NCBI GenBank assembly: GCA_001792115.1
Contig: MGFX01000001.1
Location: 122,694-186,693, forward strand
Direction of reading: 5' to 3'
Length of the DNA: 64,000 nucleotides
Source: Candidatus Woesebacteria bacterium RBG_16_42_24
GTDB lineage: Bacteria > Patescibacteriota > Microgenomatia > UBA8517
Shown here: one piece after another, positions 6,010 through 51,545 of the stretch
How the letters are laid out: every line of letters starts with the position of its first letter
How positions within the stretch are numbered: position 1 is the first letter of the stretch
Position numbers and translations under genes: made by a program
Notes under the pieces: model-generated
Told to the model about the DNA's origin: nothing
The model's input: only the letters and a program-made list of their open reading frames with translations
Database searches by the model: none

Positions 6010-6759
6010 TTAACCGGTATGTGGAAGAATTGCCCTCATTAAAATGATCAAAATTACTCCCAAGATCAAAAATGAAACGTTTTTAACAGAAGACTTCTCC
6101 GATTCCATCTTGGTTTCGGGCAAAAAATCGGTTGCGGCAACATAGAGAAAAAGGCCCGCTGCAACGGACAGTAGCACGCCAACTGAACCTTCAATTTTTT
6201 GTGAGAAGAAAAAGGTTAGAAGTGCTCCTGGGAAAGTAGCAAGGGCCGAGTAAAAATTGGTTAAGAATGCTTTTGAAGGTTTAAATCCCGCTGAAAGAAG
6301 AATACCAAAGTCCGCTATCTCGTGGGGTGTTTCGTGCAAGAAAGTTGCAAGGGCAACAGTAAGTCCTAAAGGTGGGCTAACCATAAACGCCGCAGCGATG
6401 GCAACTCCGTCTAGAAAGTTGTGGATTGTGTCCCCAAATATTACAAGCGGGATGGCCGTTTTAGGTTCTACCTCGTCTTCAGTTGTATGGTGGTGGAGGT
6501 GAAATAAGAATCGCTCTATTAAAAAAAGAAGAATAAAAACTACAAGAACGACGCTAAAAGCGCCCGTATCTAACTGATCAACGGCTTCTGGTAGTAAATC
6601 TAAAAAGGAAACCGCCAGAAGTACCCCGGTAGCAAGTGGTAAAGCCATGCTTGAAAGTTTACGGCCCCAATCCGCTCTGAATAAAAAGATCGCTCCCCCT
6701 ATAAGTCCGGCTATACTTCCTAAAAACGCCAATGCAATAATATTTAGAAGATCTCCCAT
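6010..6759 (-). CDS. ZIP family metal (Zn/Fe) transporter
   Basis: 249 aa; His-rich loop HLHHHTTEDE, HNFLDGVAIA and HETPHEIADF motifs of ZupT/ZIP. Confidence 0.8.
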   Translation of the reverse strand: MGDLLNIIALAFLGSIAGLIGGAIFLFRADWGRKLSSMALPLATGVLLAVSFLDLLPEAVDQLDTGAFSVVLVVFILLFLIERFLFHLHHHTTEDEVEPKTAIPLVIFGDTIHNFLDGVAIAAAFMVSPPLGLTVALATFLHETPHEIADFGILLSAGFKPSKAFLTNFYSALATFPGALLTFFFSQKIEGSVGVLLSVAAGLFLYVAATDFLPETKMESEKSSVKNVSFLILGVILIILMRAILPHTG

Positions 6760-31571: not shown

Positions 31572-32381
31572 ATGAAAAAATTATTTTTGATAAGCGCATT
31601 TCTTTTCCTCGTTTCTTTAGCTCTGCCAAGCAAAGTCTTTGCCGACTGCGCCTTGGCCGACTGGAACGAAAATACAAGGAATATGCAGGTTTGTGTCGGA
31701 GAATTCAGTTCCGTGGCCGAACTTAGAGATACCACTGTTGAGTTTCATTGCACGGGTAATTCAAACATACCATATGGCTCTTTCTGTCGAGACATTGTAA
31801 ACCCCACATTTTCCTTTGCTAGTACAACCGACCTCCCCGATAGCGAGATCAGGCAAGATCCAAACGGACTTTACTATGCCTGCATAACCGGGCAAGGACT
31901 CAATAGAGCCATCGGCTCATTAGATGTAATCTTTTGGAATGGCGGCTCTGAATACTGTCGAATAAATAATTTATATACCCGGCCACCCGACTGGAACCCT
32001 CTTACAGAAGGCGCTCCTTGGCAAAGGGGGACCAACAATCCTGCCCCAGTTCCAATTACGGTAGATATTGAGTTAATGTGTACGACGGGCGGGGATAGGG
32101 GAATTAATACCGCCATAGGCTGTATTCCGATTTATGATTCCACTGCCTTATTTGGTTTTATTCTTAAGTGGGCGATTGGAATCGGTGGGGGAATTGCATT
32201 CATCCTAATTCTTGTCGCCGGATTTCAAATAATAACCTCGCAAGGAGATCCGCAAAGACTCCAGGCCGGAAAAGAACTCTTAACGTCGGCCATTGTTGGG
32301 CTACTTCTTATAATTTTTTCGGTATTCATTCTGGAGGTAATAGGGGTGGACATATTGGGAATCCCGGGATTTAATCAATAA
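31572..32381 (+). CDS. secreted Cys-rich protein with C-terminal VirB2/TrbC-like pilin module
   Basis: 269 aa; signal peptide; C-terminal ~70 aa (AFILILVAGFQIITSQGDPQRLQAGKELLTSAIVGLLLIIFSVFILEVIG) matches the motif shared by the downstream small pilin-like genes. Confidence 0.5.
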   Translation: MKKLFLISAFLFLVSLALPSKVFADCALADWNENTRNMQVCVGEFSSVAELRDTTVEFHCTGNSNIPYGSFCRDIVNPTFSFASTTDLPDSEIRQDPNGLYYACITGQGLNRAIGSLDVIFWNGGSEYCRINNLYTRPPDWNPLTEGAPWQRGTNNPAPVPITVDIELMCTTGGDRGINTAIGCIPIYDSTALFGFILKWAIGIGGGIAFILILVAGFQIITSQGDPQRLQAGKELLTSAIVGLLLIIFSVFILEVIGVDILGIPGFNQ

Positions 32382-32382
32382 A

Positions 32383-32718
32383 ATGCAACTTGCGCAAATA
32401 GATTTCGGACAACTATATAGGGAGTTAAGGCAAGGAAATGCGGGTTTTGATTTTAATCAGAGCCTGACACTCGGACAAATTATTAGCTCTTTAATCCCGT
32501 ATATTTTTGTAATCGCGGGGCTACTTCTGCTTTTATATCTAGTTTTTGGCGGATTCGGACTTATGACTTCAAGAGGAGACCCAAAAGCAGTTGCCGCAGC
32601 CAAGGAAAAAATCACTTTTGCCGTTGCGGGGTTCGTCATCATTTTTGTATCATATTGGATAGTTCAGATTGTAGGGCAAATTTTGGGAATTCAGGATATC
32701 CTGGATATATTTGGCTAA
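32383..32718 (+). CDS. T4SS pilin-like protein (VirB2/TrbC-type two-TM hairpin), paralog 1
   Basis: 111 aa; TM1-GGFGLMTSRGDPKAVAAAKEKITFA-TM2-YWIVQI; motif hydrophobic-GG..ITSGGD(K/P)..AK..IT.A..G-hydrophobic-W.IIQ shared by 8 genes. Confidence 0.55.
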   Translation: MQLAQIDFGQLYRELRQGNAGFDFNQSLTLGQIISSLIPYIFVIAGLLLLLYLVFGGFGLMTSRGDPKAVAAAKEKITFAVAGFVIIFVSYWIVQIVGQILGIQDILDIFG

Positions 32719-32728
32719 AGCCTTAATA

Positions 32729-33228
32729 CAATTTCCAGTTTCCAGATTCCAATTTCCAGTTAATTTCTAATTATCAAAATTTCGAAATTAATAATTTTTC
32801 CTTTCTAAAGTAAGTATTGAAGTTGTCAAAATCTTTATAATTTCCCCACCCTCATTTATTAGCGTCTTACACTTTATAACAACTTCCTCATAAGAGGGAT
32901 TGGCCTCCAGGATTAATCGAAGCCAATAGATAGATTCTCTGGTCTCTTTCCTGCAGACCCTTAATCTATGAACAAAGTCTTTTCTTCCAAGTGCTTCGAG
33001 CGCTTCAATATAATTTGACCCGGGTGAAGCGGAAGATCGTATAAGCTGTTTTCCATATTCTCTGTTGTATTCGGATTTTGGAAGTTCGAATATTATTTTT
33101 TGACAATTTTGTGCAAAAACTACGAGTCTTTCATAAAAGGCTTCTGAATCGAATTTGGTTGCCATGGGGCGAATTCTATCATTTTATTTGGAAACTGGAA
33201 ATTGGAGATTGGAAATTATCAATTATAG
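32729..33228. mobile_element. split heptamer-iteron palindrome enclosing a four-helix-bundle gene
   Basis: Left arm CAATTTCCAGTTTCCAGATTCCAATTTCCAG..AATTATCAAAAT (32729-32800); right arm TTTGGAAACTGGAAATTGGAGATTGGAAATTATCAATTAT (33183-33228); the 4HB gene lies between the arms. Confidence 0.5.
32788..33165 (-). CDS. four-helix-bundle protein (TIGR02436 family)
   Basis: 125 aa; family-typical ...Y.RL..FAQNC..II.ELPKSEY..GKQLIRSSAS.GSNYIEA.... Confidence 0.7.
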   Translation of the reverse strand: MATKFDSEAFYERLVVFAQNCQKIIFELPKSEYNREYGKQLIRSSASPGSNYIEALEALGRKDFVHRLRVCRKETRESIYWLRLILEANPSYEEVVIKCKTLINEGGEIIKILTTSILTLERKNY

Positions 33229-33285
33229 TCTTGCATGGACACCATTTGCGGCGCTATGCTAAACTACACAAGCTAAAATAAAACG

Positions 33286-34032
33286 ATGGCTAATAAGCTT
33301 CACATTAAAGCACCCCAACACGTTGCAATTATCATGGACGGCAACCGTCGCTGGGCGGCCAAGCGTGGCTTAGGGGCGGTCGATGGTCATAGGGTTGCGG
33401 CAGAAAAAACCATTGAGCCAATTGTCGAGCGGGCAATTACCCTGGGCATTAAATATTTAACCTTTTGGGCTTTCTCATCTGAAAATAGAGATAGGGACAA
33501 GGTTGAGCTCTCCGGACTTTTTAAAATTTTTAGGGAAGCACTAAAAACCCAAGTCAGAAGACTTTCGAAAAAGGGTGTAAGGATAAGAATGATAGGAGAC
33601 GTGAGCTGGTTCCCACTCGACATCGTCAAAAGGGTAAGGGAGATGGTTACACTCACAAAAGATAATGACACAATAACGGTTTCCTTTGCCCTTAATTACG
33701 GCGGCCGCAACGAAATCCTAAGAGCCGTTAAAAAACTCATAAAAGAAGTTGAAGTTGGAAGAGTTTCGATAGAGCGCGTGGACGAAGCGGAATTTTCAAG
33801 ACACCTTGATACGATTGGTATTCCTGACCCCGATTTGATTATTCGAACCGGCGGGGAAATGAGACTTTCGGGATACCTACCTTGGCAGGCGGTTTATGCA
33901 GAACTTTACTTTACTGAAGTTCTTTTTCCTGATTTTTCTCCAAAAGAATTTGATAAGGCTTTAGAAGATTTTAGTAAGAGGGACCGGCGCTTCGGGAAGG
34001 GGAGTTTCAAAGACTATATAAAGACTATATGA
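33286..34032 (+). CDS. uppS: undecaprenyl-diphosphate synthase (cis-prenyltransferase)
   Basis: 248 aa; HVAIIMDGNRRWA, LTFWAFSSENRDR, IRTGGEMRLSGYLPWQ signatures. Confidence 0.9.
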   Translation: MANKLHIKAPQHVAIIMDGNRRWAAKRGLGAVDGHRVAAEKTIEPIVERAITLGIKYLTFWAFSSENRDRDKVELSGLFKIFREALKTQVRRLSKKGVRIRMIGDVSWFPLDIVKRVREMVTLTKDNDTITVSFALNYGGRNEILRAVKKLIKEVEVGRVSIERVDEAEFSRHLDTIGIPDPDLIIRTGGEMRLSGYLPWQAVYAELYFTEVLFPDFSPKEFDKALEDFSKRDRRFGKGSFKDYIKTI

Positions 34033-34123
34033 AGAAGACTTCGTCTTCACGAAATTCCAAATTCCCTGCCTCGCCGGCAGGCGGGCAATTACCCCGCCTA
34101 CGCCAAGGCTTCGGCGGGCAGGC

Positions 34124-34210
34124 AATCTCCAATTAAATTCCAAAATCCTAATTATTAATTTGATAATTCTAGATTATCTGGAAACTGGAATCTGGAAATT
34201 GGAAATTAGT
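34124..34210. repeat. heptamer-iteron palindromic element upstream of pilin gene
   Basis: TCTCCAATTAAATTCCAAAATCCTAATTATTAATTTGATAATTCTAGATTATCTGGAAACTGGAATCTGGAAATTGGAAATT. Confidence 0.65.
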
Positions 34211-34233
34211 ATATGTTTTGTTACACTTAAGTC

Positions 34234-34548
34234 GTGAGAGAGATTGCCCTGAATATCGGAACCTATTTTAATTCTCCCATCGGTAAAACCGTGGGTGCAG
34301 GGCAACTAGTTTCAATAATCCTTTCAAACGCATTACTTTTTGCCGGAGTTCTTATGGTCTTCTTCTTAGTTGTCGGGGGAATTGGGGTAATATCGGGTGC
34401 GGGAGAAGACAATCCCGAGAAAGCCGCTAAAGGAAAACAGGCCGTAACTTTTGCCCTCATAGGTTTTCTGGTAATTTTTGCATCTTATTGGATAATTCAG
34501 ATAATAGAGCAGATTACGGGAGTCAACATTTTTAACCCGGGATTTTAG
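34234..34548 (+). CDS. T4SS pilin-like protein, paralog 2
   Basis: 104 aa; LVVGGIGVISGAGEDNPEKAAKGKQAVTFALIGFLVIFASYWIIQIIEQI. Confidence 0.55.
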   Translation: MREIALNIGTYFNSPIGKTVGAGQLVSIILSNALLFAGVLMVFFLVVGGIGVISGAGEDNPEKAAKGKQAVTFALIGFLVIFASYWIIQIIEQITGVNIFNPGF

Positions 34549-34591
34549 GAAGTCTTTATTTAGTATCTGTTTTGGTATTTAATAATATTAG

Positions 34592-34939
34592 ATGCAAGAA
34601 GTAGCACAAGTTTTCGGAAACGTTAATGCGCCCCCTGGAGTTAGCCAATATGGAAACCTGACCGAGGGGGGGCCGACTTATTTCATAACCAATATTTTAA
34701 GGTTTCTAATTGTCATTGCGGGAGTATATGCGCTAATTAACATGGTTCTTGCAGGTTATGCTTTTTTGTCAGCGGGAGATGACCCGAAAAAGGTGGCTGG
34801 GGCTTGGGCCAAGATTTGGCAATCTATTTTGGGGGTTGTAATTTCGGCCGGGGCATTTGTTCTGGCTGCTCTTTTTGGAAGACTTTTGTTTGGGGATTAC
34901 TCGGCCTTCTTAAGGCTTAGAATTTTCGGTCCCAATTAA
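34592..34939 (+). CDS. T4SS pilin-like protein, paralog 3
   Basis: 115 aa; MVLAGYAFLSAGDDPKKVAGAWAKIWQSILGVVISAGAFVL. Confidence 0.5.
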   Translation: MQEVAQVFGNVNAPPGVSQYGNLTEGGPTYFITNILRFLIVIAGVYALINMVLAGYAFLSAGDDPKKVAGAWAKIWQSILGVVISAGAFVLAALFGRLLFGDYSAFLRLRIFGPN

Positions 34940-34940
34940 T

Positions 34941-35330
34941 ATGGAAAACTTTATCGCTCAAAGAGAAATACCAATAAACGGTACTATCGAAGGGTTTGGC
35001 CCACTGGGGTTGGAGGGTAGAAATCCCCAAGAGTCAACGAACATATTTAATTTCTTCCTCTCAAGCACGATTGGGCTACTGACTATTATTGCTGCTATTT
35101 GGTTTCTTTTTGTGCTTATCACGGGGGCAATTAGTATTATCTCTTCCGGAGGCGACAAGGCTAAAGTAGCAGAAGCCAGGGGGAGAATTACAACGGGGCT
35201 TATCGGGTTAATAGTAGTTATTGCCGGAATATTTATCTTAGAGCTTATCGGAACTTTAATCGGGTTTGATCTTATCTTAAATCCGGGGGAGTTTATTCAA
35301 AGAATCCCGCCCTGGATTGTTGGTCCATAA
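34941..35330 (+). CDS. T4SS pilin-like protein, paralog 4
   Basis: 129 aa; LITGAISIISSGGDKAKVAEARGRITTGLIGLIVVIAGIFILELIG. Confidence 0.55.
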   Translation: MENFIAQREIPINGTIEGFGPLGLEGRNPQESTNIFNFFLSSTIGLLTIIAAIWFLFVLITGAISIISSGGDKAKVAEARGRITTGLIGLIVVIAGIFILELIGTLIGFDLILNPGEFIQRIPPWIVGP

Positions 35331-35679
35331 AATGCTAGCCCAAGTTCCAGCTCCAAATAAGATAACTAACCCCGCCTTAGGGAATAATCTCCAAAACCTA
35401 ACGGGCGCTGAATTTTTTGAAAAATTTGTTCCCATGTTAATTAGTCTTGTACTTATCATCGGGGTTGTCATCTTTACTTTTGTTCTAGTCTTGGGGGCGA
35501 TAAGTTGGATTTCCTCCGGGGGAGACAAGGCTCAAGTCGAAAGCGCAAGGGGGAAAGTTACTACGGCTATTATCGGGCTAGTTCTTCTCTTTTCAGCCTG
35601 GGCAATTATTAATCTAATTGAGCTATTTTTCGGGATAAACATTTTAACACTTGACATTCTTAACTTAGCAATTCAATAA
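35317..35679 (+). CDS. T4SS pilin-like protein, paralog 5
   Basis: 120 aa; LVLGAISWISSGGDKAQVESARGKVTTAIIGLVLLFSAWAIINLIE. Confidence 0.55.
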   Translation: MLVHKMLAQVPAPNKITNPALGNNLQNLTGAEFFEKFVPMLISLVLIIGVVIFTFVLVLGAISWISSGGDKAQVESARGKVTTAIIGLVLLFSAWAIINLIELFFGINILTLDILNLAIQ

Positions 35680-35694
35680 TTAAGGAGTAGAGAT

Positions 35695-36021
35695 ATGTTA
35701 GCCCAAGTCAATCTATCACCTCAAGGCCAGTGGACCAATCTGGGTGGCCTTACAATCCCAGGAATCATAGCTGGTTTTATTACTGCTGTATTAATTATTG
35801 CCGCAGTTGTTTTCTTCTTCATTCTCGTAATTGGAGGGATAAGATGGATTACTTCTGGTGGAGATAAGGCCAATACGGAGGCTGCCAGGGGTCAAATTAC
35901 CGCCGCCCTGGTTGGGTTAGTAATTGTCTTTGCCGCCTGGGCAATAATTCAGCTACTTCAGACATTCTTTGGCATGAATATTCTCCAAAATCTTACTATA
36001 CCTACTGCAAACACTCCGTAA
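35695..36021 (+). CDS. T4SS pilin-like protein, paralog 6
   Basis: 108 aa; LVIGGIRWITSGGDKANTEAARGQITAALVGLVIVFAAWAIIQLLQ. Confidence 0.55.
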   Translation: MLAQVNLSPQGQWTNLGGLTIPGIIAGFITAVLIIAAVVFFFILVIGGIRWITSGGDKANTEAARGQITAALVGLVIVFAAWAIIQLLQTFFGMNILQNLTIPTANTP

Positions 36022-36033
36022 GACTTATCTAAG

Positions 36034-36061
36034 GCAGCGCCCGAAAGGGCGCTTTTTTGTT
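36034..36061 (+). terminator. rho-independent terminator
   Basis: GCAGCGCCCGAAAGGGCGCTTTTTTGTT: GC-rich hairpin followed by T-run, directly after pilin paralog 6. Confidence 0.7.
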
Positions 36062-36113
36062 GGCAAAGGGCAAAATTGCTTTTTTTGTATCTACGCCCTA
36101 AACTTTTAGTGAT

Positions 36114-36434
36114 ATGTTGCCGCCGCCATGGTCGGATCCAACCGGGAATACCCCCGCAACTTTTAGTGACATCGAGGTCGCCTTTGCCAGGATCGTATTG
36201 GTAATTTTGGGACTTGCCGCAATTGTTCTTTTCATCATGCTTCTTGTCGGAGGATTTAAATTTATTACGGCCGGGGGTGACCCCAAAGCCGTGGAGTCGG
36301 CTAAAAAAACTTTGACTTACGCAATTGCCGGAATGGTTTTGGTTGCCTCGGCCTATCTAATCCTTCGCTTCATTGGTGTATTTACCGGCATTGACGTGGT
36401 TAACTTTAGAGTATTTCAACCCCTTCAACCCTAA
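36114..36434 (+). CDS. T4SS pilin-like protein, paralog 7
   Basis: 106 aa; LLVGGFKFITAGGDPKAVESAKKTLTYAIAGMVLVASAYLILRFIG. Confidence 0.55.
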   Translation: MLPPPWSDPTGNTPATFSDIEVAFARIVLVILGLAAIVLFIMLLVGGFKFITAGGDPKAVESAKKTLTYAIAGMVLVASAYLILRFIGVFTGIDVVNFRVFQPLQP

Positions 36435-38942: not shown

Positions 38943-40679
38943 GTGATTAAAAAACTGCTCGCATCCCTGCTTTTGTCTATCTTCCTTTTGGTTTCTATCT
39001 TCCCCAAAGTTGCCTCTGCTCAGACCTGGTACAGCCAAGGACCCCTGGAGTGGTATACCAAGGTCTATGACGAAGCCCAATCTCCTCAAAATGAAATATT
39101 TGGGGAGCGCTATACTGCGGCTCAGGTAGAGTGGATCATCTATACAATCGTCACCTGGCCATTTACAAAAATCTTGGGTCCGGAGATCACTACCTGTGCC
39201 CTTAGTACCGATGTTGGTACGTGTATCACGGCTATTATTACAGACGCTAGCCCTCTCCCTAATCTCGCAGCCCTCCCGAAACCCAAAGAAGAAGGCCTAT
39301 TAAAAGTTATGTTTAAGGATAAAGAACTTTCCGGAGTTACTTATGTAAAAAACGTAATCAGAAAGTTTCACTTAGTACCCCAGGCAGAAGCACAAGCGGG
39401 TTTCGGCTTCACAGAAGCACTTCTGCCAATCCAGGCTATGTGGAGGGCTTCAAGAGACATTGCATATGGACTCTTTGTCGTAGTTGCTTTGATTCTGGCA
39501 TTCATGATTATGTTCAGAGTCAAAATCGCCCCACAGGTCGTTATAACCGCCCAGTCCGCCCTTCCCAAAATTCTCATTGCTGTCGTACTTGTAACTTTTT
39601 CCTACGCAATAGCCGGCTTTATTATCGACTTTATGTACGTCGTTATCGGGCTAATTAGTCTTCTGGCAGTTAACTACTTTCCCGACCTTCTCATAAAATC
39701 CATAGCCCCACCCCTCCCCCCCGTTATCACACCAACTGTGATATTTAATACCCTAACCCTAGGGCAGCCATTATCTCTAAACTTTCCTTCGCCATATGGG
39801 ATATTTGGACTTTTTGCCTTTTACTTATTGCTTTTTGCCTTGTCAGGTGCTTTGGTTATTGGCTCTTCTATTGGCCTCATAGGGATTGCTCTGACAGGGG
39901 CGGTTGGGGCAGCCTTACTATTAAGCGTGTTTCCAACTGCTGGGCTGACAGCAATGCTGCTCTTAGTTGGGTTTATCCTCTTTCTAATAGTATTTATCAT
40001 CCTTCTCTGGATGTTTTTCAAAACGTTATTTATGCTTTTTAAGGCCTACGCAGGGGTTATTCTATTGACTATATTTGCACCGTTTCAAATTTTGGTTGGA
40101 ACAGTAGTTCCGAGCCTGGGATTCGGCAGGTGGCTTCGGAGTTTTGTGGCCAATTTAGCTGTTTTCGTGGTAGTTGGGGTTCTATTCCTCCTTGCTTATA
40201 TTTTTGCCATTCAGGCAATGACTTTTGCCCTTCTTGCGAATGGTATTCAAGAAGACGTAATCCTTGGTATTCTAAACGGGATTTTCGGAACAAACATTAT
40301 CGGAACAGCCCAAAACCTCTTTCTCGGCACCAGCTCAGCCGGCTGGCCGCCTCTTTTGGGAACATTGGGGGGGTCGGGAGACGCGGCCGTCTCCTTCCTA
40401 TTTTTAGGAGTAAGCTTTGTCCTATTTACACTTATTCCCAAGGCCGCCGACATCATCCAGGGCCTCATCTCCGGCCGACCATTTGCATATGGAACGGCGA
40501 TAGGTGAAGCCTTCTCTCCTCTTGCCTATCCATTCGGTGTGGCGAAGGGCGCAGCTGAGAAAGGAGTAACGGGATACGTTGGTGAAGGCTACATTAAGCC
40601 CTGGCTTCAGCAAAGATTTGGGCACGGAACACCTGAGGTTGGACGCAGAGGGCTTGGTGGAAAACCTCTCGCTGAGTAA
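38943..40679 (+). CDS. polytopic membrane protein, candidate VirB6/PrgH-like T4SS channel component
   Basis: 578 aa; signal peptide, periplasmic domain then ≥8 TM helices; assignment by topology and gene order (upstream of PrgI/VirB4-like genes). Confidence 0.4.
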   Translation: MIKKLLASLLLSIFLLVSIFPKVASAQTWYSQGPLEWYTKVYDEAQSPQNEIFGERYTAAQVEWIIYTIVTWPFTKILGPEITTCALSTDVGTCITAIITDASPLPNLAALPKPKEEGLLKVMFKDKELSGVTYVKNVIRKFHLVPQAEAQAGFGFTEALLPIQAMWRASRDIAYGLFVVVALILAFMIMFRVKIAPQVVITAQSALPKILIAVVLVTFSYAIAGFIIDFMYVVIGLISLLAVNYFPDLLIKSIAPPLPPVITPTVIFNTLTLGQPLSLNFPSPYGIFGLFAFYLLLFALSGALVIGSSIGLIGIALTGAVGAALLLSVFPTAGLTAMLLLVGFILFLIVFIILLWMFFKTLFMLFKAYAGVILLTIFAPFQILVGTVVPSLGFGRWLRSFVANLAVFVVVGVLFLLAYIFAIQAMTFALLANGIQEDVILGILNGIFGTNIIGTAQNLFLGTSSAGWPPLLGTLGGSGDAAVSFLFLGVSFVLFTLIPKAADIIQGLISGRPFAYGTAIGEAFSPLAYPFGVAKGAAEKGVTGYVGEGYIKPWLQQRFGHGTPEVGRRGLGGKPLAE

Positions 40680-40853: not shown

Positions 40854-43559
40854 TTAACCCCTAGTAGCCTTATCAAAAGCCGCACTCAAAGCCTTCTGTC
40901 CGGCAAGTTTTGCTAGTCTTCTATTAAAGTTAAGTCTACGCTTTATATCTTCCATAGTTATTTCTGTTAGAAATGTTCCTACCTCGGGAGAAAGCTCTTC
41001 CCGCGTTAATGTATTTATGAATTCCGCCAAAACTGTACCTATTGATTTACGCCCTATATCCAAGTCTTTATCGGCAAGGGCCATGTCTATTACACCGACT
41101 GCCCAAAGACCTCTTAGCTGCATAGGGCCCATTTTCTCGATTCTCAGATTTTCAGGTGCATCGGCAGTATTGAAATATACAACAGCTTCTTGCATAAAAG
41201 TCTTGTCCATTTCGGCAATCTTAGGCTTTCTATCTAAAAGAAGTCCACTTAGAAGCTTATATCTTGTCATAATAACGCTGCAATAAAACTGCCAATTGTC
41301 CTCTATTTGACTTATATCCAAATTGTCCACATTCATTTGGGTATCTACCCTAAAAGGAAGCCTTTCCCGCTGCCTCCCTTTAAATTTCTTTGTTTGTTTA
41401 TCCTCTTGGGTCCATCTTAACCACGACGTTCCAAACCCCCTAATTTCATCCTCGTGTACTTGCGGGCCCCTTATTCTACCCTTGCTTCTCCTGGCTTCCC
41501 TCCACTTTTTCAGACCAAATATTTCAGCTACCTGGTCGTTGCCTACAGTATCTCCTCTATTGAAAACAGAGTCTTCAAGGGTGGCCCGAGATAGTTTTTC
41601 TGCAAGCTGAAGCGACTTTTTAGCGTTTTCTCTTCTTTCTTCTGGAGTATTTCCATCAACACTCTCACTCCTCGCAATTTCCTCTATAAGAAGATTCCTA
41701 ACGGCTTCTTCTATTATTGGGTTTGTTTCTCTAAAAAAATTTACATTAGTGCGCGGCTTGAGTTTTCCTTCTTTGTTTCGTAAATCTTTATCATCTTTTG
41801 GAACCACCCTATCAACCCATTTCATATACTCCTGGTTATCGAAAACTGTATTGCCATCCTTATCTTCGCTTACATCAAAATGGTTTAGTTGCTGAAGTAA
41901 GTCCCACGCCCTGGGCACATCGAGCCCAGGCAATAACTCTCGTTTTAAAAACGTCTCTACTATCTCCCTATTTAACTGGTGCCCCCTTCTCTGAGCTTCT
42001 GCCGCCGCACTTCCAATTGCATATCCATGTCCCACTTTCTCTTCCTCCCTAAAAATCCACCCGTCAGCTTGTTTAATTAGCTCTGAACAGTCGTGTACGG
42101 CAAGCCTGGCTCTAGCTTCTCTCGCGATTCCTTTATCAATTTTTTCTATGGCCCCAAGTGATACCTCTAGCCCCCTTACAATATAGGTATTGCCAAAATC
42201 GAGAGTATCCCTGTTCGAATTCTCTATAGCATCTAATTTCTCTCGAACAAAAGCCCTAAGTTCTTCCACTTTTCCTTCGTATCTTTTAACGTCTATTTGA
42301 TACTCCCCCATAGTCATCCTAGATTGTGATTCGGCGGCACTCCTCATCGCCTCTGCGGCAGCAGTTAACACATCTGCCGATTCTTTAGTCCCTTGTTCCG
42401 ATTCGGGTCTAAATTTCTTCTTTGATAATGACGTCTTGACAAAATCGTGGGGTTCTACTCCCAGCTGGAAAAATGCTTCCCTCTGTACGCGCTTCTCTAG
42501 AAATTTCAAGCCTTCCTCTCCCTCTGATTCTCCGTGCATTTTTAACCACAAAATATCCTCCGGGGATCCCGCCACCATTGAAGGTCGCTTTTTAAATCGC
42601 TTTTCAAAACCGATTTTTCTAATTCTTAGCGCCTCCCCGGCGAATGCCGCACGCAGCATTCCTTCTTCTTCGGGTTTTAGGAAGCCCGTTGTACTTAAGG
42701 CTAAATTTTCTGCGTTAATCCCAAAGTTTTTAACATTGTCGTAAACCTCATCCCAAGTACTATCTCCAAGAATATTTAAATAAGTTTGTGTAATATCTTT
42801 AACAAATGCTTTGTGGTCCTGGTCTCGTTCGCTAAAGTTTTTCCACATCTCGTCCCTTTTTTCCATTGCTTTCTTTCTCGTCTCTTCTGATGTCTCATCG
42901 TCAATAATTATTTTTCGAAGGTCTTTAAAATTATCTGGTAATCTACCATCCTCTTTTGGGGGTTCCTCGGGCGGTTTTTCCGGAGGGCCTCCCTCTCCAC
43001 CAGGAGGAGTGCCTCTAGCTTCTTTTTCCCACCCCCTACTTTTTATCCATCGTGCAACCGCTCCCGGAAACCTTTCGACAAATTCATCTGCGGCATGAAC
43101 AGCTGCACCCCCCAGCGAAACCGGTAGGGCATTTAGCAAGCCTTCCCATGTTGACGCCTTTCCTTCCTTCTCAAGCTCCTCAATGTAGCGCATAAGGATT
43201 TTGCCCTGCCAGTGATGGCCCTCTGTCTCACTAATCTCATTTCTATTTACAAGCCCTTCTATAGTGTCGTAAGACCCTTGTAGAACTTCTTTGCTCACCA
43301 TGACATCTGGCCTTCTAGCGAGGCTATGAATTTCTACTTGAAGTGTCTCATTTTTAATATTATCGACCTCTTCTCGATTCTTAACTAACCATGGAGCCCA
43401 CTCTTCTCCCTCCGGTCCCTCAACCCGCCGATGGGGTAAAGATTGGTGTGGGTTGACAGGATTAGCCATAGCCCTTTTTCGAATCTCCCCAATTGAAGCA
43501 CCTTTTGATTCAATAATAATTTCGGGGCCTTTGCCCCCTCCGCCTTCTGCCATATCCAT
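40854..43559 (-). CDS. large acidic cytoplasmic hypothetical protein
   Basis: 901 aa single ORF, opposite strand within the T4SS-like locus; no recognisable motif. Confidence 0.4.
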   Translation of the reverse strand: MDMAEGGGGKGPEIIIESKGASIGEIRKRAMANPVNPHQSLPHRRVEGPEGEEWAPWLVKNREEVDNIKNETLQVEIHSLARRPDVMVSKEVLQGSYDTIEGLVNRNEISETEGHHWQGKILMRYIEELEKEGKASTWEGLLNALPVSLGGAAVHAADEFVERFPGAVARWIKSRGWEKEARGTPPGGEGGPPEKPPEEPPKEDGRLPDNFKDLRKIIIDDETSEETRKKAMEKRDEMWKNFSERDQDHKAFVKDITQTYLNILGDSTWDEVYDNVKNFGINAENLALSTTGFLKPEEEGMLRAAFAGEALRIRKIGFEKRFKKRPSMVAGSPEDILWLKMHGESEGEEGLKFLEKRVQREAFFQLGVEPHDFVKTSLSKKKFRPESEQGTKESADVLTAAAEAMRSAAESQSRMTMGEYQIDVKRYEGKVEELRAFVREKLDAIENSNRDTLDFGNTYIVRGLEVSLGAIEKIDKGIAREARARLAVHDCSELIKQADGWIFREEEKVGHGYAIGSAAAEAQRRGHQLNREIVETFLKRELLPGLDVPRAWDLLQQLNHFDVSEDKDGNTVFDNQEYMKWVDRVVPKDDKDLRNKEGKLKPRTNVNFFRETNPIIEEAVRNLLIEEIARSESVDGNTPEERRENAKKSLQLAEKLSRATLEDSVFNRGDTVGNDQVAEIFGLKKWREARRSKGRIRGPQVHEDEIRGFGTSWLRWTQEDKQTKKFKGRQRERLPFRVDTQMNVDNLDISQIEDNWQFYCSVIMTRYKLLSGLLLDRKPKIAEMDKTFMQEAVVYFNTADAPENLRIEKMGPMQLRGLWAVGVIDMALADKDLDIGRKSIGTVLAEFINTLTREELSPEVGTFLTEITMEDIKRRLNFNRRLAKLAGQKALSAAFDKATRG

Positions 43560-43714: not shown

Positions 43715-44098
43715 ATGGCGGAACCTGTCCAAAAAACTAGCTATAAAAACTTAATAGTTTATCAGAAGGCAAAAGCTCTAACGACAGATGTCCTTAGTTA
43801 TTTCTCAGAACATAAGCTACCTTACACAAAAGAATTCTTAATAAGACAATTATTCCGATCCGTTAGTTCAGTTGGGGCAAATATTGCTGAAGGCTACGGA
43901 AGGCATTATCAAGGAAGCCTAAGGCAATTCTTCGCCATCGCACGAGGTTCGAGTTTTGAGTCAGATTACTGGCTAGAGATTCTTCAGGAAATGGGAGAAT
44001 TTGACGGGAAAATAATATCAGATTTTATTAACAGAAACACAGAGCTTTCAAAAATGTTGACAAGTTTGATGAAAAAGACAGACGTTTCGCGTCAATAG
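43715..44098 (+). CDS. four-helix-bundle protein (TIGR02436 family)
   Basis: 127 aa; YKNLIVYQKAKALT..V......LPYTKEFLIRQLFRSVSSVGANIAEGYGR. Confidence 0.7.
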   Translation: MAEPVQKTSYKNLIVYQKAKALTTDVLSYFSEHKLPYTKEFLIRQLFRSVSSVGANIAEGYGRHYQGSLRQFFAIARGSSFESDYWLEILQEMGEFDGKIISDFINRNTELSKMLTSLMKKTDVSRQ

Positions 44099-44149: not shown

Positions 44150-45286
44150 ATGGAACAACAACACCCGATACCGCAACAAATCTCCTCTTACCAATTCCGA
44201 CTGGTGGGGGATATGACCCTCAAGCAATTCCTGCAAGTCGGCGGAGGCATGTTAATTGCCCTAATTATTTACTCAACTCCAATCATTGGACTTATTAAGT
44301 GGCCTCTTGTAATTATTTCTGCCTTAACAGGCGCGGCCCTTGCGTTCCTGCCTTTCCAAGAGAGGCCCCTAGAGAAATGGATTTTTGCTTTCCTTCGCTC
44401 AATCTATTCCCCAACCCTTTTTTATTGGAAACGTCTGCCCTCCGAAACCGCTTTTTTCCAAGAACAACCCACAACCCTACCCACCCCCTCGGTAGTTACC
44501 CCGCCGCCTCCCCCCGGGTATCCTGAACTGGCTATAGAAATCACTCCTCCTGTCGCCCCTGCTGCCCCTCTTCCAGCCGGAAGTCCTCAAGGTTTGACTG
44601 CCAAGCCACCCCTTATGGTGCCAACAATTGCCCCTCTGGGTTTTCCTTCATCGGGGCCGGTGTCCCAGGCCCCGAAAGCTCCAGTGGAGCTTGAACCGGG
44701 ATTAACAATCTTTCCTAACCTTGAGGAAGCAGAAAAAACTTTCTTGAGTAAAATCACGGGGCTATTTAGTCTTGCCCCAACCTTGCCTACCAATGAAGGT
44801 CCCGTTAGCGAGGAAGAGAAAAAAGGGCGCCTGAATGTCGTTCCATCAAAGCCAATCAAAATTGAGCCCATCCATGAGGAAAAAGAGGTCCCCGAAGAAC
44901 CCGCACTAGAACCTGTTTATGTTTCTGTTGCACCAACCTTAACTCCCACAAGGAAGTTAGCCGAGGAATTTGCGCAATTTAGTGAGGACGCCGCTCCTCC
45001 CTTTCCTCCCAGTCTTCCAAATGTGATTGTAGGTCAAGTTATGGACTCAAATAAAAAAATCGTAGAGGGAGCAATACTTGAAATTAAAGATTCTGCGGGA
45101 AGGCCCGTAAGAGCACTCAAAAGCAATAAACTAGGACATTTTATGATCGTCACTCCTCTAACTAACGGCCGCTATACAATAGAAATCGAAAAAAATGGGT
45201 TTATCTTTGATACTGTAAGTTTTGACGCGCTGGGAAACGTCATTCCGCCGATAGCGATCAAGGCCAAGGAGATAACCAATGCCTAA
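44150..45286 (+). CDS. PrgI-family (VirB3-like) T4SS membrane protein with Pro-rich linker and C-terminal CarboxypepD_reg-like beta-sandwich domain
   Basis: N-terminal ~100 aa: QFRLVGDMTLKQFLQVGGGMLIALIIY...LPFQERPLEKWIFAFLRSIYSPTLFYWKR matches the PrgI family pattern; followed by PPPPGYPELA... linker and GQVMDSNKKIVEGAILEIKDSAGRPV...GRYTIEIEKNGF domain; overlaps start of VirB4 gene. Confidence 0.55.
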   Translation: MEQQHPIPQQISSYQFRLVGDMTLKQFLQVGGGMLIALIIYSTPIIGLIKWPLVIISALTGAALAFLPFQERPLEKWIFAFLRSIYSPTLFYWKRLPSETAFFQEQPTTLPTPSVVTPPPPPGYPELAIEITPPVAPAAPLPAGSPQGLTAKPPLMVPTIAPLGFPSSGPVSQAPKAPVELEPGLTIFPNLEEAEKTFLSKITGLFSLAPTLPTNEGPVSEEEKKGRLNVVPSKPIKIEPIHEEKEVPEEPALEPVYVSVAPTLTPTRKLAEEFAQFSEDAAPPFPPSLPNVIVGQVMDSNKKIVEGAILEIKDSAGRPVRALKSNKLGHFMIVTPLTNGRYTIEIEKNGFIFDTVSFDALGNVIPPIAIKAKEITNA

Positions 45287-48027: not shown

Positions 48028-49836
48028 ATGGCAAAAGAAGTCTCTTTAAAAATAACCTACTCACAAGCTCCGGGGGTAAGAAAGCCTACAGTCGAAAAAC
48101 TTCATCAAGATATCAAAGAGGCGGGCTACGGCTTTTTCCAAAAAAACCCAGAATATGGGCCTTCTTTTTTACTCTTTTCCTCGGGTGTAAAAAGTAACCA
48201 ATTAGCAGGTGAGATAAAAAAAGCTCCCGAGAAGGGGCTTGATATTGAAAGCATTTCTCTTCTTGAAGACGTCAACTTAAAATTAAAAACTTTTGAGCAA
48301 GAAAACCCTGAGCTTTTTCGAGACCTGAGCGAAACTTACTACGAAGGCGTTTCTCAAATTGAAATCACCGAGGAGGTCGGGGGTCCAGGACAATATATCT
48401 CTCTTAAGCCTTCCGCTGACAACACATATTATGAATTTTCCCCGGGGCCATCCTTAGACCAAGCAGGAATCGATATTGGCCCCGCCAGAGAGGCCGCCTC
48501 CTTCGCCCTTAACAAAATTGCTGAACCGGTCAAAAAGAAAATTGTCGAAGCCGGAGTGAAAGTCGCTACAAAGGCCGTCACAAAAGCCGCTGTTGGGACC
48601 GCCACAAAAGTAGGGGTACAGGCTGCGGCTCAAGCCGTCGGTTCAACCGTTCCGATAATAGGAAATATCATCGCTTTTATTACCACAACTGTTATAGCTG
48701 GCATTATCGACCGGGCTTTAATCGCAGCCAAAAAAAGGGCAAGGGACGTTGAGGACGCCGTAGGGGGGGCTATTATAGCCTCCTTGCAGTTTTTGGGTCT
48801 TCTGGGGGGAATCCTTTCGGCAACTTTTTCAACAATTCTTGGAATGGTCATCGTCATAATCATCTCCATACCGTTCACCATCGCCTATATACTCTTCATC
48901 ATTAACTCCGGCGCCTACCTTGTACCACCCTCACAAATTTTAGCTCCTGGTGAAAATCCCTATATAGAGATAACAAAAGTGGCTAGCGAAACGGAATTCG
49001 AAAATTCAGATTTACCAATTAGCGTCACTTATACAATTACCGTCACTCCTTTAAGGGGGTCTTTAACAAACATCTCTATTTCCCACGTATGCGAAATCTT
49101 AAGCCGCAGGCCTACCGACGATTGTCCCGCCCCTACTGATCCAGCACCAGTTTTGATATCACCAGCGACTCCTTATGTATATACGTATACGGTAACTTAC
49201 ACTCAGGCGGATGCTGATTATCGCGATTCCTTGGTCCTCAATACTTTTTCTGTTACCGCAGACACCGACGAAGTTTCCCAAACTACAGCAACGGGGGCGG
49301 CCTCGGTCATTATCGGAAATCCTCCCACGGAGTGTTATACTTTTGATGGTAGCTGGGACGCCAGTTCTCAAGCACAAGGTTACAAAAACACGCTACTAGG
49401 TGCCATTACCACCCTCACTTCTAACTATACTCCTTTTGCCCAAAAGGTCTGTACAGGCGGACAGCTAGTACGGCTTGAATACACACAAAACTTAGGTTGT
49501 CCTGGCGCCTGGGCTTGTGCCTTCAGAAGCAGTGTAATAAGATTTAATGGAGGCGGACTGAATAATCCCAATAGTGCCTTGTATATTTTGACTCACGAAT
49601 CCGGTCATATTGTTAACTACAGACTGGACTCCCTTTACCAACAATATGAAGATTGGCCGGGGGTAGATCAGGAAAGACCGTCTATCTGTTCCTATGCTCC
49701 AGCAAGAACGGAGGCTGCGGAGGCGTTTGCCGAATCGGCTGCATTATATGTAGCGTCGACCCGCTGCACAACCCCGTCTACCTACCCCTCTCTTTACCCT
49801 GCACATTACTCATTTGCTGACCAAGTATTATTCTAG
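48028..49836 (+). CDS. membrane protein with C-terminal HExxH zinc-metallopeptidase-like domain (candidate T4SS cell-wall-remodelling component, PrgK/VirB1 functional analog)
   Basis: 602 aa; central TM bundle (aa ~180-300), C-terminal ...ALYILTHESGHIVNYRL...E... (HExxH + downstream Glu); position after VirB4. Confidence 0.4.
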   Translation: MAKEVSLKITYSQAPGVRKPTVEKLHQDIKEAGYGFFQKNPEYGPSFLLFSSGVKSNQLAGEIKKAPEKGLDIESISLLEDVNLKLKTFEQENPELFRDLSETYYEGVSQIEITEEVGGPGQYISLKPSADNTYYEFSPGPSLDQAGIDIGPAREAASFALNKIAEPVKKKIVEAGVKVATKAVTKAAVGTATKVGVQAAAQAVGSTVPIIGNIIAFITTTVIAGIIDRALIAAKKRARDVEDAVGGAIIASLQFLGLLGGILSATFSTILGMVIVIIISIPFTIAYILFIINSGAYLVPPSQILAPGENPYIEITKVASETEFENSDLPISVTYTITVTPLRGSLTNISISHVCEILSRRPTDDCPAPTDPAPVLISPATPYVYTYTVTYTQADADYRDSLVLNTFSVTADTDEVSQTTATGAASVIIGNPPTECYTFDGSWDASSQAQGYKNTLLGAITTLTSNYTPFAQKVCTGGQLVRLEYTQNLGCPGAWACAFRSSVIRFNGGGLNNPNSALYILTHESGHIVNYRLDSLYQQYEDWPGVDQERPSICSYAPARTEAAEAFAESAALYVASTRCTTPSTYPSLYPAHYSFADQVLF

Positions 49837-49855: not shown

Positions 49856-50428
49856 ATGAAAATCATAGAATTTATTAAAAAAAGAAAACTAATCCTGATT
49901 CTTGTTCTGGTTCTTACCGCATGGATAGCAAATTCTATTCTTTCAAGAATCCCTGAGCGGCCCCAGGGTCCGGGGGAGCCCGGTGTTAGCTACAGGAATC
50001 TAGTTCCCGGGGTAAGTAGCCGATCTGATGTTATCGAAAAAATGGGAAACCCTGTCGATCAAGCCGCCAAAGGAGAAGAAATTTTACTTAGTTTTAAGTC
50101 TACAAGTCCTACAAGAACCCATGAAGCGATAGTAGACAGCGGCAACACTCTTTCTTTCATAAAGGAGATTGTCTCTGTAAATGACGATAAACATATCGCT
50201 GATATCACCTCCCAACATGGAGAAGCCCCCCATACCCTTTACGGGCCGCACTCTATCAATGGTTTTGATCTGTTCGTCTATCCCGATAAGGGCCTTGCCT
50301 ATATCGGTAATCCTTATGGCACCCAAGGAACTATTCTGGAAATCTGGTATTTCCCACCAACGACAATTGAAAATTTTAAGTCGACTTGGGCACCGGGCTA
50401 TTCGAATACTTATCAACCGTCTCAATAA
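49856..50428 (+). CDS. membrane-anchored secreted hypothetical protein
   Basis: 190 aa; N-terminal TM; last gene of the + strand block. Confidence 0.35.
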   Translation: MKIIEFIKKRKLILILVLVLTAWIANSILSRIPERPQGPGEPGVSYRNLVPGVSSRSDVIEKMGNPVDQAAKGEEILLSFKSTSPTRTHEAIVDSGNTLSFIKEIVSVNDDKHIADITSQHGEAPHTLYGPHSINGFDLFVYPDKGLAYIGNPYGTQGTILEIWYFPPTTIENFKSTWAPGYSNTYQPSQ

Positions 50429-50432
50429 ATCT

Positions 50433-51545
50433 CTAAACCTGAACCCTTACGGGCATTATAAGATGAAGAAAATTGACGTCGGAGGGATCGGTAAAAACTC
50501 CGGGAGCATTCTCGTTGGAAAGCCCTATGTTAACATCACCACCGCTTACGGCGTGCAAGAATTCCTCTAAAAATCTATAGTTAAAAGAAATTTCAAACCC
50601 GCCCGTCGGTAACCCTTCAACTTTTGCCTCAACCTGACTTTCTTGCCTCCCCGCCATCTGGCTTTCAGCGGCAATTACTACTCCGTCCTTTTTAAGTGAA
50701 AACCTAACTATGTTGGCTGAATCCCTGGCAAAAACCGAGGCAAGCTTTACGGCTCTTAAAAGATCATCTTTATCAAGTGATACCTTGATATTTGTCTCTT
50801 TTGGAATTATTTTTTCGAACTCCGGAAAATCACCTTCTAAAATCCGCGTTGATAAAATCGTATCCCCTACTCCAAAAACCACCTGATTATCTTCTTCTCT
50901 GAAAGATAGTTTTAAATCTTGCTCCTCAATCCCTATTCTTGCAAGCTCCGACAAGGCGCTTTTAGGAAGTATTACTTTTTTTTCTTGATGAAAGCCTGCG
51001 TCTTGTAATTTTTTTTGAGAAAGCCTAAAACCATCAGTCGCCACAAGTGAGAGCCCCCCTTTTTTAAATAGAAAGAGAACTCCTGTCAAAATCGGTCGGG
51101 TTTCGTCAGTTGAGGCGGCAAAGACAACTTGAGAAAGAGCCTGTAAAAGCGCTTCTTTCGGGAAGGAATATGAAGTCTTGCCCAAAGATTGAGGGACTTC
51201 GGGAAAGTCTACTGCATTCATTCCGGAAACACTCGAGTTAGTGTTGGATGATGAAATTTCCAAAATTTCTTTTTCAGAATTGAGCATTATTGCACCGGGG
51301 GTAAAATTTACTACAAGTTCGCTAATTACTCGCGACGGGATAGTAATTTCTCCTTCGCTAGATACTTTTGCTCCAATAGAAATGGCCACAGAAACTTCGA
51401 GATTAGTCGAGCAGACTAGGAGTTTGTTTTTCTTGGCCGAGAGGTAGATATTTCCGAGAACAGGCAGTTGAGCCCGAGAACTTGCAAAGCGTGAAGCGGT
51501 TGAAAGTGCTCTTGAAAAATTTTCCTGAAGAACTTCTAATTTCAT
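50433..51545 (-). CDS. dnaN: DNA polymerase III beta sliding clamp
   Basis: 370 aa; three-domain clamp pattern, MKLEVLQENFSRAL N-terminus; downstream of dnaA. Confidence 0.85.
   Translation of the reverse strand: MKLEVLQENFSRALSTASRFASSRAQLPVLGNIYLSAKKNKLLVCSTNLEVSVAISIGAKVSSEGEITIPSRVISELVVNFTPGAIMLNSEKEILEISSSNTNSSVSGMNAVDFPEVPQSLGKTSYSFPKEALLQALSQVVFAASTDETRPILTGVLFLFKKGGLSLVATDGFRLSQKKLQDAGFHQEKKVILPKSALSELARIGIEEQDLKLSFREEDNQVVFGVGDTILSTRILEGDFPEFEKIIPKETNIKVSLDKDDLLRAVKLASVFARDSANIVRFSLKKDGVVIAAESQMAGRQESQVEAKVEGLPTGGFEISFNYRFLEEFLHAVSGGDVNIGLSNENAPGVFTDPSDVNFLHLIMPVRVQV

Follow-up and report, generated by a model that had tools for sequence, protein, structure and literature searches.

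The DNA analysed here, referred to as the window, is a stretch of 64,000 nucleotides of contig MGFX01000001.1 from Candidatus Woesebacteria bacterium RBG_16_42_24. It carries a chromosomal type IV secretion system (T4SS), and the subject of this report is the gene that follows the VirB4-like ATPase of that system, hereafter the target (Table 1). The original prediction, made from the sequence alone, had placed this open reading frame (ORF) directly after VirB4 and had assigned it a C-terminal HExxH metallopeptidase-like domain; the gap between the ATPase stop codon and the target ATG is indeed 4 nt. According to our computations, the protein consists, in this order, of a folded N-terminal domain, three transmembrane (TM) helices, the motif INSGAYxVPP, an immunoglobulin (Ig)-like spacer and a 165-aa zinc endopeptidase domain. 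Ectodomain and following gene form a single exchangeable unit, as shown by computational comparison with related loci.

The HExxH motif of the 602-aa target is HESGH at aa 523-527. The expected number of chance HExxH strings is as low as 0.0025, because the target has 5 histidines in all. One other of the 42 scanned window ORFs of at least 150 aa contains such a string, namely a 249-aa ORF on the minus strand (6010-6759) with HETPH at aa 142. Residue conservation was counted over 158 aligned members of the peptidase family. H523 is present in 157/158 homologues, E524 and H527 in 158/158 each. The downstream glutamate of the original prediction is found as well: E565 and E569 lie in the string EAFAES, with E565 kept in 155/158 members and E569 being E in 150/158 and D in 7/158. 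Y556 is kept in 150/158. HExxH is invariant in alignment A1. By computation, the predicted catalytic set H523, E524, H527, Y556 and E565 is complete, and the conservation proposed as a check of the HExxH assignment is borne out. The protein P0001 (locus L006, from another metagenome, 98% identical) lacks the 10 residues QQYEDWPGVD, aa 538-547 in the window; this deletion lies between HExxH and the conserved Tyr, so the loop tolerates indels.

The HExxH domain is not recognised by Pfam or NCBIfam models, even at E<=10. PF07737 (ATLF-like) matches 0/22 domain members at this threshold, and the per-member Pfam scan at E<=10 yields scattered weak zincin matches (M64, reprolysin, M48, eCIS_core). 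M34 membership at the sequence level is rejected, as the per-member scan gives no ATLF match. A single-sequence search of the target against PDB finds no match. The domain profile has its top PDB match in Zmp1/PPEP-1 (E 0.002), a Pro-Pro endopeptidase (PPEP) of Clostridioides difficile. The HMMER alignment places HExxH and the "peEsfAE" helix onto "PEEFFAES" of PPEP-1, with E565 on the second Glu of that string. E565, in the EAFAES helix about 40 residues past HExxH, would thereby stand where the third zinc ligand of M34 peptidases is expected. The overall fold of the modelled catalytic domain is M34 / ATLF-like, and structure prediction shows no non-peptidase fold, an outcome that would have spoken against the peptidase assignment. 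As it escapes all Pfam and NCBIfam models, the domain constitutes a new sequence family with the M34 peptidases as nearest relatives, and judging from sequence it is best treated as an M34-like zinc peptidase of a new family related to M34.

PPEP-1, PPEP-2, PPEP-3 and anthrax lethal factor (LF) have in common with the target HExxH and, at similar spacing, a Glu in an "EExFAE"-type helix and possibly a Tyr, as well as an extracytoplasmic location, which is predicted for the target. However, Y556 lies 9 residues ahead of the Glu ligand versus 7 in PPEP-1, with an alignment offset of 2 columns from the PPEP-1 Tyr (the reference catalytic Tyr is Y178 in PPEP-1 and Y728 in LF). Unlike PPEPs and LF, the target domain is disulfide-rich, and it forms the C-terminus of a 3-TM protein of a T4SS locus, whereas PPEPs and LF are secreted. 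The target belongs to Patescibacteria; PPEPs have been reported from Clostridiales and Bacillales alone (PMC8610288). Sequence identity to PPEPs is 15-18% and the C-terminal half alone aligns, hence Pro-Pro specificity cannot be assumed.

Searched against 1.84 billion cluster representatives, the domain profile matches 587 proteins at E<=1e-3, of which 385 reach E<=1e-10. Among the matches listed that exceed about 250 aa (the majority), the domain is the C-terminus of proteins of 360-1130 aa; shorter matches are probably contig fragments. The full-length target gives a sub-threshold match to DUF7507 and nothing else in Pfam and NCBIfam. Its first-pass homologues (n=60) are, every one, metagenomic or from metagenome-assembled genomes (MAGs) belonging to the candidate phyla radiation (CPR), and the few named ones are "Candidatus Woesebacteria" or "Patescibacteria group". 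The C-terminal 165 aa are common to the target and 24/60 of these, with HExxH kept in 24/24. A scan for the core motif (INSGAY pattern) in one genome per GTDB species yields 34 loci. Where a lineage label is given, it reads Woesebacteria, Microgenomates or Patescibacteria, and some of these MAGs are complete chromosomes (about 0.9-1.0 Mb); 9 further bins are labelled "uncultured Gammaproteobacteria" and 3 just "bacterium", generic labels that are probably uninformative.

The full-length AlphaFold2 (AF2) model of the target has a confidence (pLDDT) of 74. Its N-terminal domain (aa 1-140) finds no PDB match from the full-length model, has no HPD motif and falls into no family. A J-domain (PF00226, E 1e-13 to 1e-16) precedes the TM region in the homologues P0008, P0024 and P0025, spanning N-terminal aa 63-178 in alleles whose ectodomain is HExxH or M23b (see below). 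Its presence ahead of the TM segments indicates that the N-terminus is cytoplasmic, and suggests that Hsp70 may be recruited to this T4SS subunit in J-domain alleles. The original prediction of a dense TM bundle at aa ~180-300 holds for the presence of membrane segments, not for their density: a Lys/Ala-rich amphipathic stretch (aa 170-205) is followed by three TM helices. AF2 performs poorly over this region (pLDDT 23-44). All 8 Cys of the target (8/8) are found past the last TM segment, on its C-terminal side. Combined with three TM helices and this accumulation of Cys in the C-terminal part, a cytoplasmic N-terminus would place the peptidase outside the membrane, and we infer that the domain is displayed extracytoplasmically. 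Likewise, the predicted ~300-aa extracytoplasmic domain does end in a peptidase, but is not one domain; it divides into an Ig-like domain (~310-430) and a 165-aa zincin (437-602). The Ig-like domain matches DUF7507 of Pfam at E 2e-4, under the gathering score, and Foldseek retrieves CARDB and adhesin Ig-like domains with probability 0.97-1.0.

The string FIINSGAYxVPP stands right where TM3 ends. All loci (38/38) keep I, N, S, G, A, Y, V and the first P unchanged, and 35/38 also retain the second P of VPP. Third codon positions of INSGAY vary freely, so the constraint acts on the protein; INSGAY as a DNA-level recombination site is rejected for the same reason. S-G-A at positions -3 to -1 of INSGA|Y matches the signal-peptidase rule, and the target might be cleaved there.

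Three ectodomain types, M34-like, M23a and M23b, alternate in the slot after virB4 of Woesebacteria genomes, each genome having one of them. The other 36/60 first-pass homologues of the target have the TM region and the Ig-like domain in common with it; 35 of them have an M23-type ending, P0055 differs. The M23a module has the motif HLHYEF and matches Pfam PF01551 at E 1e-13 to 1e-20. The M23b module has HLHLEF or HVHIE with weak PF01551 matches (E 7e-4 to 0.03), and is assigned solely from the HxH motif and these matches. A strict HxxxD regular expression is uninformative over the M23 alleles. Comparison by region reveals a mosaic relationship: P0002 (M23b) is 80-89% identical to the target over aa 1-299 and 52% in the Ig-like domain, and unrelated past it, whereas P0003 (HExxH) reaches 43-49% identity in the N-terminal part, 73% in the Ig-like domain and 55% in the catalytic domain. 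At the DNA level, the contig of P0002 (L005) matches the window with 83% identity between the 3' end of virB4 and nt 48932, the end of the INSGAYLVPP codons. No DNA similarity is detectable between L005 and the window over the rest of the target gene and the gene at 49856-50428. Identity sets in again precisely with the 3' end of dnaN, where it amounts to 86%, and the same right-hand boundary is found in three other sister pairs of differing type.

Each ectodomain type has its own family of small membrane-anchored proteins encoded downstream. Catalytic type predicts the downstream gene family in 38/38 loci, with no exception: HExxH goes with family X (187-197 aa) in 10/10 loci of the genome set, and M23a with family Y (322-347 aa) in 17/17; the partner family of M23b is Z. 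After removal of the common N-terminal signal-anchor, BLAST separates the three partner families into clusters with no overlap. A metagenome scan seeded with family X finds an HExxH-ending ORF immediately upstream in 35/36 assessable loci, and no orphan family X copy among the 36 loci. Orphan copies of ectodomain or partner are likewise absent between partner gene and dnaN in the loci compared. Neighbour-joining trees of DnaN and of VirB4 intermix the three types, even at the level of sister taxa, which implies that the cassette was replaced many times.

The cognate partner in the window belongs to family X. It is preceded by a ribosome-binding site (GGAGG, 5 nt 5' of the ATG), possesses one TM segment (aa 3-21) and is non-homologous to L005. 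A role of the 190-aa partner as VirB8/PrgL analogue is unlikely, because three unrelated partner families swap with the cassette.

Table 1. Features of the target gene, its partner and the surrounding T4SS locus in the window
Feature	Coordinates	Strand	Details or basis
Array of ~8 VirB2-like pilin genes, same T4SS locus	31572..36434	+	translations
Polytopic 578-aa protein, 8 hydrophobic segments, candidate VirB6-like channel subunit	38943..40679	+
PrgI (VirB3)-like protein with CarboxypepD_reg-like domain	44150..45286	+	PF12666 E 1.8e-6; two TM
VirB4-like T4SS ATPase (CD1110 family), 914 aa	45279..48023	+	NCBIfam, Pfam
Target gene, T4SS-associated membrane protein with C-terminal M34-like zinc peptidase (predicted)	48028..49836	+	ATG start, 602 aa
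N-terminal folded alpha/beta domain, aa 1-140, probably cytoplasmic	48028..48447	+	AF2 pLDDT ~72-93
Three predicted TM helices, ~aa 207-228, 244-266, 270-296	48646..48915	+	Kyte-Doolittle windows
INSGAYLVPP motif, aa 292-301, outer end of TM3	48901..48930	+	invariant; breakpoint in closest relative
Ig-like beta-sandwich, ~aa 310-430	48955..49317	+	AF2 beta strands, pLDDT ~74-94
Predicted M34-like (anthrax LF / Pro-Pro endopeptidase fold) zinc metallopeptidase domain, aa 437-602	49336..49833	+
HESGH: H523, H527 putative zinc ligands, E524 putative catalytic base	49594..49608	+	homologue conservation
Y556 ... E565-A-F-A-E569: candidate transition-state Tyr and third zinc ligand	49693..49734	+	homologue conservation
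Cognate partner, family X, 190 aa, N-terminal signal-anchor and ~150-aa domain	49856..50428	+
dnaN, right-hand conserved edge of variable cassette	50433..51545	-	identity to relatives returns here

The order PrgI-VirB4-target-partner-dnaN-dnaA occurs also in a 951-kb and a 172-kb CPR contig and in 34 species genomes. In the conserved locus, one or more pilin genes are followed by genes for a large Cys-rich protein, a polytopic membrane protein, an oppositely oriented large protein and PrgI, and then by VirB4, the target, the small gene, dnaN, dnaA and rnpA-yidD-yidC, and the window shows the identical order. The place of the target beside virB4 is kept over 38 loci. It is the chromosomal, origin-proximal, MPF-FATA-like Patescibacteria T4SS described in the survey of Quinonero-Coronel et al. 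2025 (PMC12102498). According to this survey, VirB1 homologues are seldom found near virB4, and VirB6 is scarce in Microgenomatia. The Gram-positive T4SS setting assumed in the original prediction does not apply: the gene is chromosomal and core, beside dnaN/dnaA in a Patescibacterium, and not part of a conjugative element. The ATPase ORF matches NCBIfam NF045971 with E 3.6e-113 and 379 bits (cutoff 325), and P-loop_TraG, AAA_10 and DUF87 of Pfam. The position of the 8-segment ORF (38943-40679) is conserved in related loci, although it has no family match. The target, with 3 TM segments, is rejected as VirB6 analogue, given this separate 8-TM ORF in the conserved locus.

The pilin genes (31572-32381, 32383-32718, 34234-34548, 34592-34939, 34941-35330, 35317-35679, 35695-36021 and 36114-36434) encode divergent, small proteins, each with two hydrophobic helices and a "GGD/GDP-K" loop; the first one is longer, with a Cys-rich N-terminal part. 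The array is broken by a gene of the 23S rRNA intervening sequence protein (23S-IVP) type and uppS. At the equivalent position, L003 has an annotated T4SS_pilin (PF18895), and pilin arrays of this sort are reported for Microgenomatia (PMC12102498).

The T4SS is essential for epibiotic growth of the saccharibacterium Southlakia epibionticum (Wang et al. 2023, PMC10633639). In this species, SEML1_0007 (1113 aa) follows immediately after the VirB4-like SEML1_0008. Its C-terminal 155 residues adopt a Hedgehog/DD-peptidase fold, with "Peptidase M15B" and "M23" as best named matches. It is followed by SEML1_0006, a lysozyme/cysteine-peptidase protein, and by the small exported Ig-like SEML1_0005; all of these genes are scored essential. 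SEML1_0007 resembles the target in its place right after VirB4 in an origin-proximal Patescibacteria T4SS, in its zinc peptidase end and in the link of its system to epibiotic growth. It differs in its M15B-like fold and its length, and is a counterpart by position; the INSGAY-pattern scan retrieves Woesebacteria, Microgenomates and unclassified MAGs alone. The post-virB4 slot of two Patescibacteria classes is thus a large protein with a zinc-peptidase end, the fold of which varies (M15B-like, M23, M34-like). The view that a peptidoglycan hydrolase normally occupies this slot agrees with these data, since orthologous alleles carry Peptidase_M23 and the Saccharibacteria counterpart a DD-peptidase fold.

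VirB1-type hydrolases of monoderm T4SSs (PrgK of pCF10, TraG of pIP501, CwlT of ICEBs1, TcpG of pCW3) are likewise encoded beside virB4 in an MPF-FATA-like cluster, and combine a membrane anchor with an extracytoplasmic hydrolase, an arrangement predicted for the target too. PrgK has a LytM/M23-like domain, and M23 is present in the sister alleles of the target. In contrast to VirB1-type proteins with SLT, CHAP, NlpC/P60 or M23, the target has an M34-like zincin; of the recognised peptidoglycan hydrolase domains (SLT, CHAP, NlpC/P60, glucosaminidase, M23) it possesses none, and M23 is found in orthologous alleles. The target further differs in its large N-terminal, probably cytoplasmic domain, its three TM helices, its chromosomal core locus beside dnaN/dnaA, whereas VirB1-type systems reside on mobile elements, and its ectodomain being exchangeable along with the partner gene.

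The post-virB4 operon position, the conserved catalytic residues, the peptidoglycan-peptidase sister alleles and the covarying partner lead us to favour, with somewhat better than even confidence, the target as an envelope-cutting subunit of the origin-proximal T4SS in this Woesebacteria-type Patescibacterium, in the VirB1/PrgK slot. Its peptidase would cleave peptide bonds of the cell wall, either the cell's own, opening a passage for T4SS and pilus, or the host's at the contact site. This wall-cutting role is proposed by analogy, because M23 in the sister alleles and the DD-peptidase in Saccharibacteria do that job. That hydrolysis by the slot protein may be needed for T4SS function has indirect support from the essentiality of SEML1_0007 in S. 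epibionticum. The partner, in turn, may bind the ectodomain and restrain or position the peptidase. Several points weigh against this interpretation. To our knowledge, no zincin of M34-like fold is a murein hydrolase. The characterised M34 relatives (anthrax LF, PPEP-1/2/3) all cut proteins, not peptidoglycan (PMC8610288). Scans with Pfam and NCBIfam detect no peptidoglycan-binding module (LysM, SH3b, PG_binding) in the target, and the partner has no Pfam match, nor does the family X profile retrieve anything from PDB. The topology rests on hydropathy, Cys pattern and the J-domain argument, because the TM region is poorly modelled. Furthermore, repeated swaps of non-homologous cassettes between close relatives are seen more typically at loci of conflict or host specificity than where the wall is remodelled as a housekeeping task.

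The preference of the characterised relatives for proteins, with PPEP-1/2/3 and LF as the closest structures, speaks for a surface protease, which like the Pro-Pro endopeptidases would cut surface proteins rather than peptidoglycan. Possible substrates are adhesins of the cell itself, VirB2-like pilins, the partner protein encoded next door or surface proteins of the host, and the activity of the protease would control attachment and detachment or the maturation of T4SS components. The 8 pilin genes within the same locus and the missing peptidoglycan-binding domain in the Pfam scan are consistent with such a function. However, modules that are typically murein peptidases (M23 and DD-peptidase) fill the slot in orthologous loci, the similarity to PPEPs is low and confined to the C-terminal half, Pro-Pro is not conserved in family X, and VPP is equally conserved in M23-type alleles. 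The latter finding also disfavours Pro-Pro autoprocessing at VPP. We regard a surface protease as possible, albeit unlikely. A pseudo-peptidase, in which the HExxH domain lacks catalysis and serves for structure or binding, i.e. as a scaffold or wall-binding tip, is far less credible and very improbable. Some T4SS hydrolase domains are individually dispensable, such as LytM and CHAP of PrgK, each of which Laverde Gomez et al. reportedly found to be dispensable in 2014, but H, E, H, Y and E are kept in 95-100% of 158 diverged homologues of the target, and this retention argues for selection for catalysis.

The pattern of exchange bears on a further alternative, an effector-immunity-like polymorphic module, in which the ectodomain is released (e.g. 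at INSGA|Y) and turned, by way of the T4SS or next to it, against the envelope of a host or competitor, with the downstream signal-anchored protein as immunity protein or inhibitor that guards the producer. Switching between M34-like, M23a and M23b would then suit the cell to different target walls. The cassette is like polymorphic toxin loci (CdiA-CT/CdiI, Rhs, and the peptidoglycan-hydrolase effectors X-Tfe/X-Tfi of the Xanthomonas T4SS) in its conserved N-terminal part, invariant junction motif, non-homologous C-terminal modules and a downstream gene that covaries perfectly with the module inside the exchanged DNA. The scatter of cassette types over the housekeeping trees and the potential signal-peptidase site of the junction point in the same direction, and delivery of effectors to hosts by Patescibacteria T4SS has been proposed (PMC11665869). 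In contrast to the large repertoires with orphans of polymorphic toxins, of which dozens of types are typical, three cassette types are seen, with no orphan copies before dnaN and no orphan X genes in the 36 loci. The target is anchored by three TM helices, its release at INSGA|Y being hypothetical, and the partners are signal-anchored and bear no similarity to known immunity families in Pfam and PDB searches. The essentiality of the Saccharibacteria slot gene is explained as well or better by a structural or assembly role. A module of this kind appears rather doubtful to us. The bolder version, a horizontally exchangeable three-state "warhead plus safety catch", with release at INSGA|Y, attack on the host envelope where epibiont and host touch, a partner that shields the producer and switching that retunes host range, is speculative and doubtful likewise. 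If true, a CPR secretion system would for the first time have a candidate host-specificity determinant, and no lethal-factor-type peptidase before it would have acted on the envelope of a bacterium.

The Patescibacteria T4SS itself, its place by dnaA and the peptidase and lysozyme genes after virB4 in Saccharibacteria are already published. In the literature we found no description of the M34-like family, of its place in the Woesebacteria T4SS or of the three-state cassette of ectodomain and partner. The function of the Patescibacteria T4SS has been called "completely unknown" (PMC11665869), and in the single species tested the system is essential for epibiotic growth. The present analysis fills the hydrolase slot of the Woesebacteria T4SS with a candidate, and defines a sizeable, hitherto undetected peptidase family (587 cluster representatives lacking a Pfam or NCBIfam model). 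It extends the anthrax-LF/PPEP fold beyond Firmicutes to a membrane-tethered, secretion-system-linked setting. The extracellular end of the T4SS and its cognate partner are repeatedly swapped between close relatives, a pattern that points to a T4SS part facing a variable target, be it the chemistry of the cell's own wall or that of the host. Ectodomain, partner and an E524A mutant are clonable reagents for probing the function of the system.

Several neighbouring genes deserve mention. PDB sequence searches with the 799-, 578- and 901-aa ORFs of the locus return no match. The first of these (36441-38840, plus strand) encodes a secreted protein with 28 Cys and the last (40854-43559, minus strand) a soluble one; both are conserved locus genes with no family match. 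In the VirB4 ORF, aa 26-79 show weak TrsD-like similarity (NF041427, E 0.002). In L001 (7345-9998), VirB4 is split into a 230-aa TraC-like gene and a 652-aa ATPase gene, so lineages differ in whether the TrsD-like N-terminal part is fused or stands apart. The PrgI-like protein is unusually long (378 aa), with a CarboxypepD_reg/PEGA-like beta-sandwich at aa 293-351, and the corresponding region of L006 is called as two genes of 227 and 180 aa. A four-helix protein of the 23S-IVP type (PF05635, E 4.6e-24) is encoded at 43715-44098 on the plus strand, and a second gene of this type, judged by eye, lies inside the T4SS locus at 32788-33165 on the minus strand. The near-identical contig L006 has a 23S-IVP-type copy ahead of PrgI as well.

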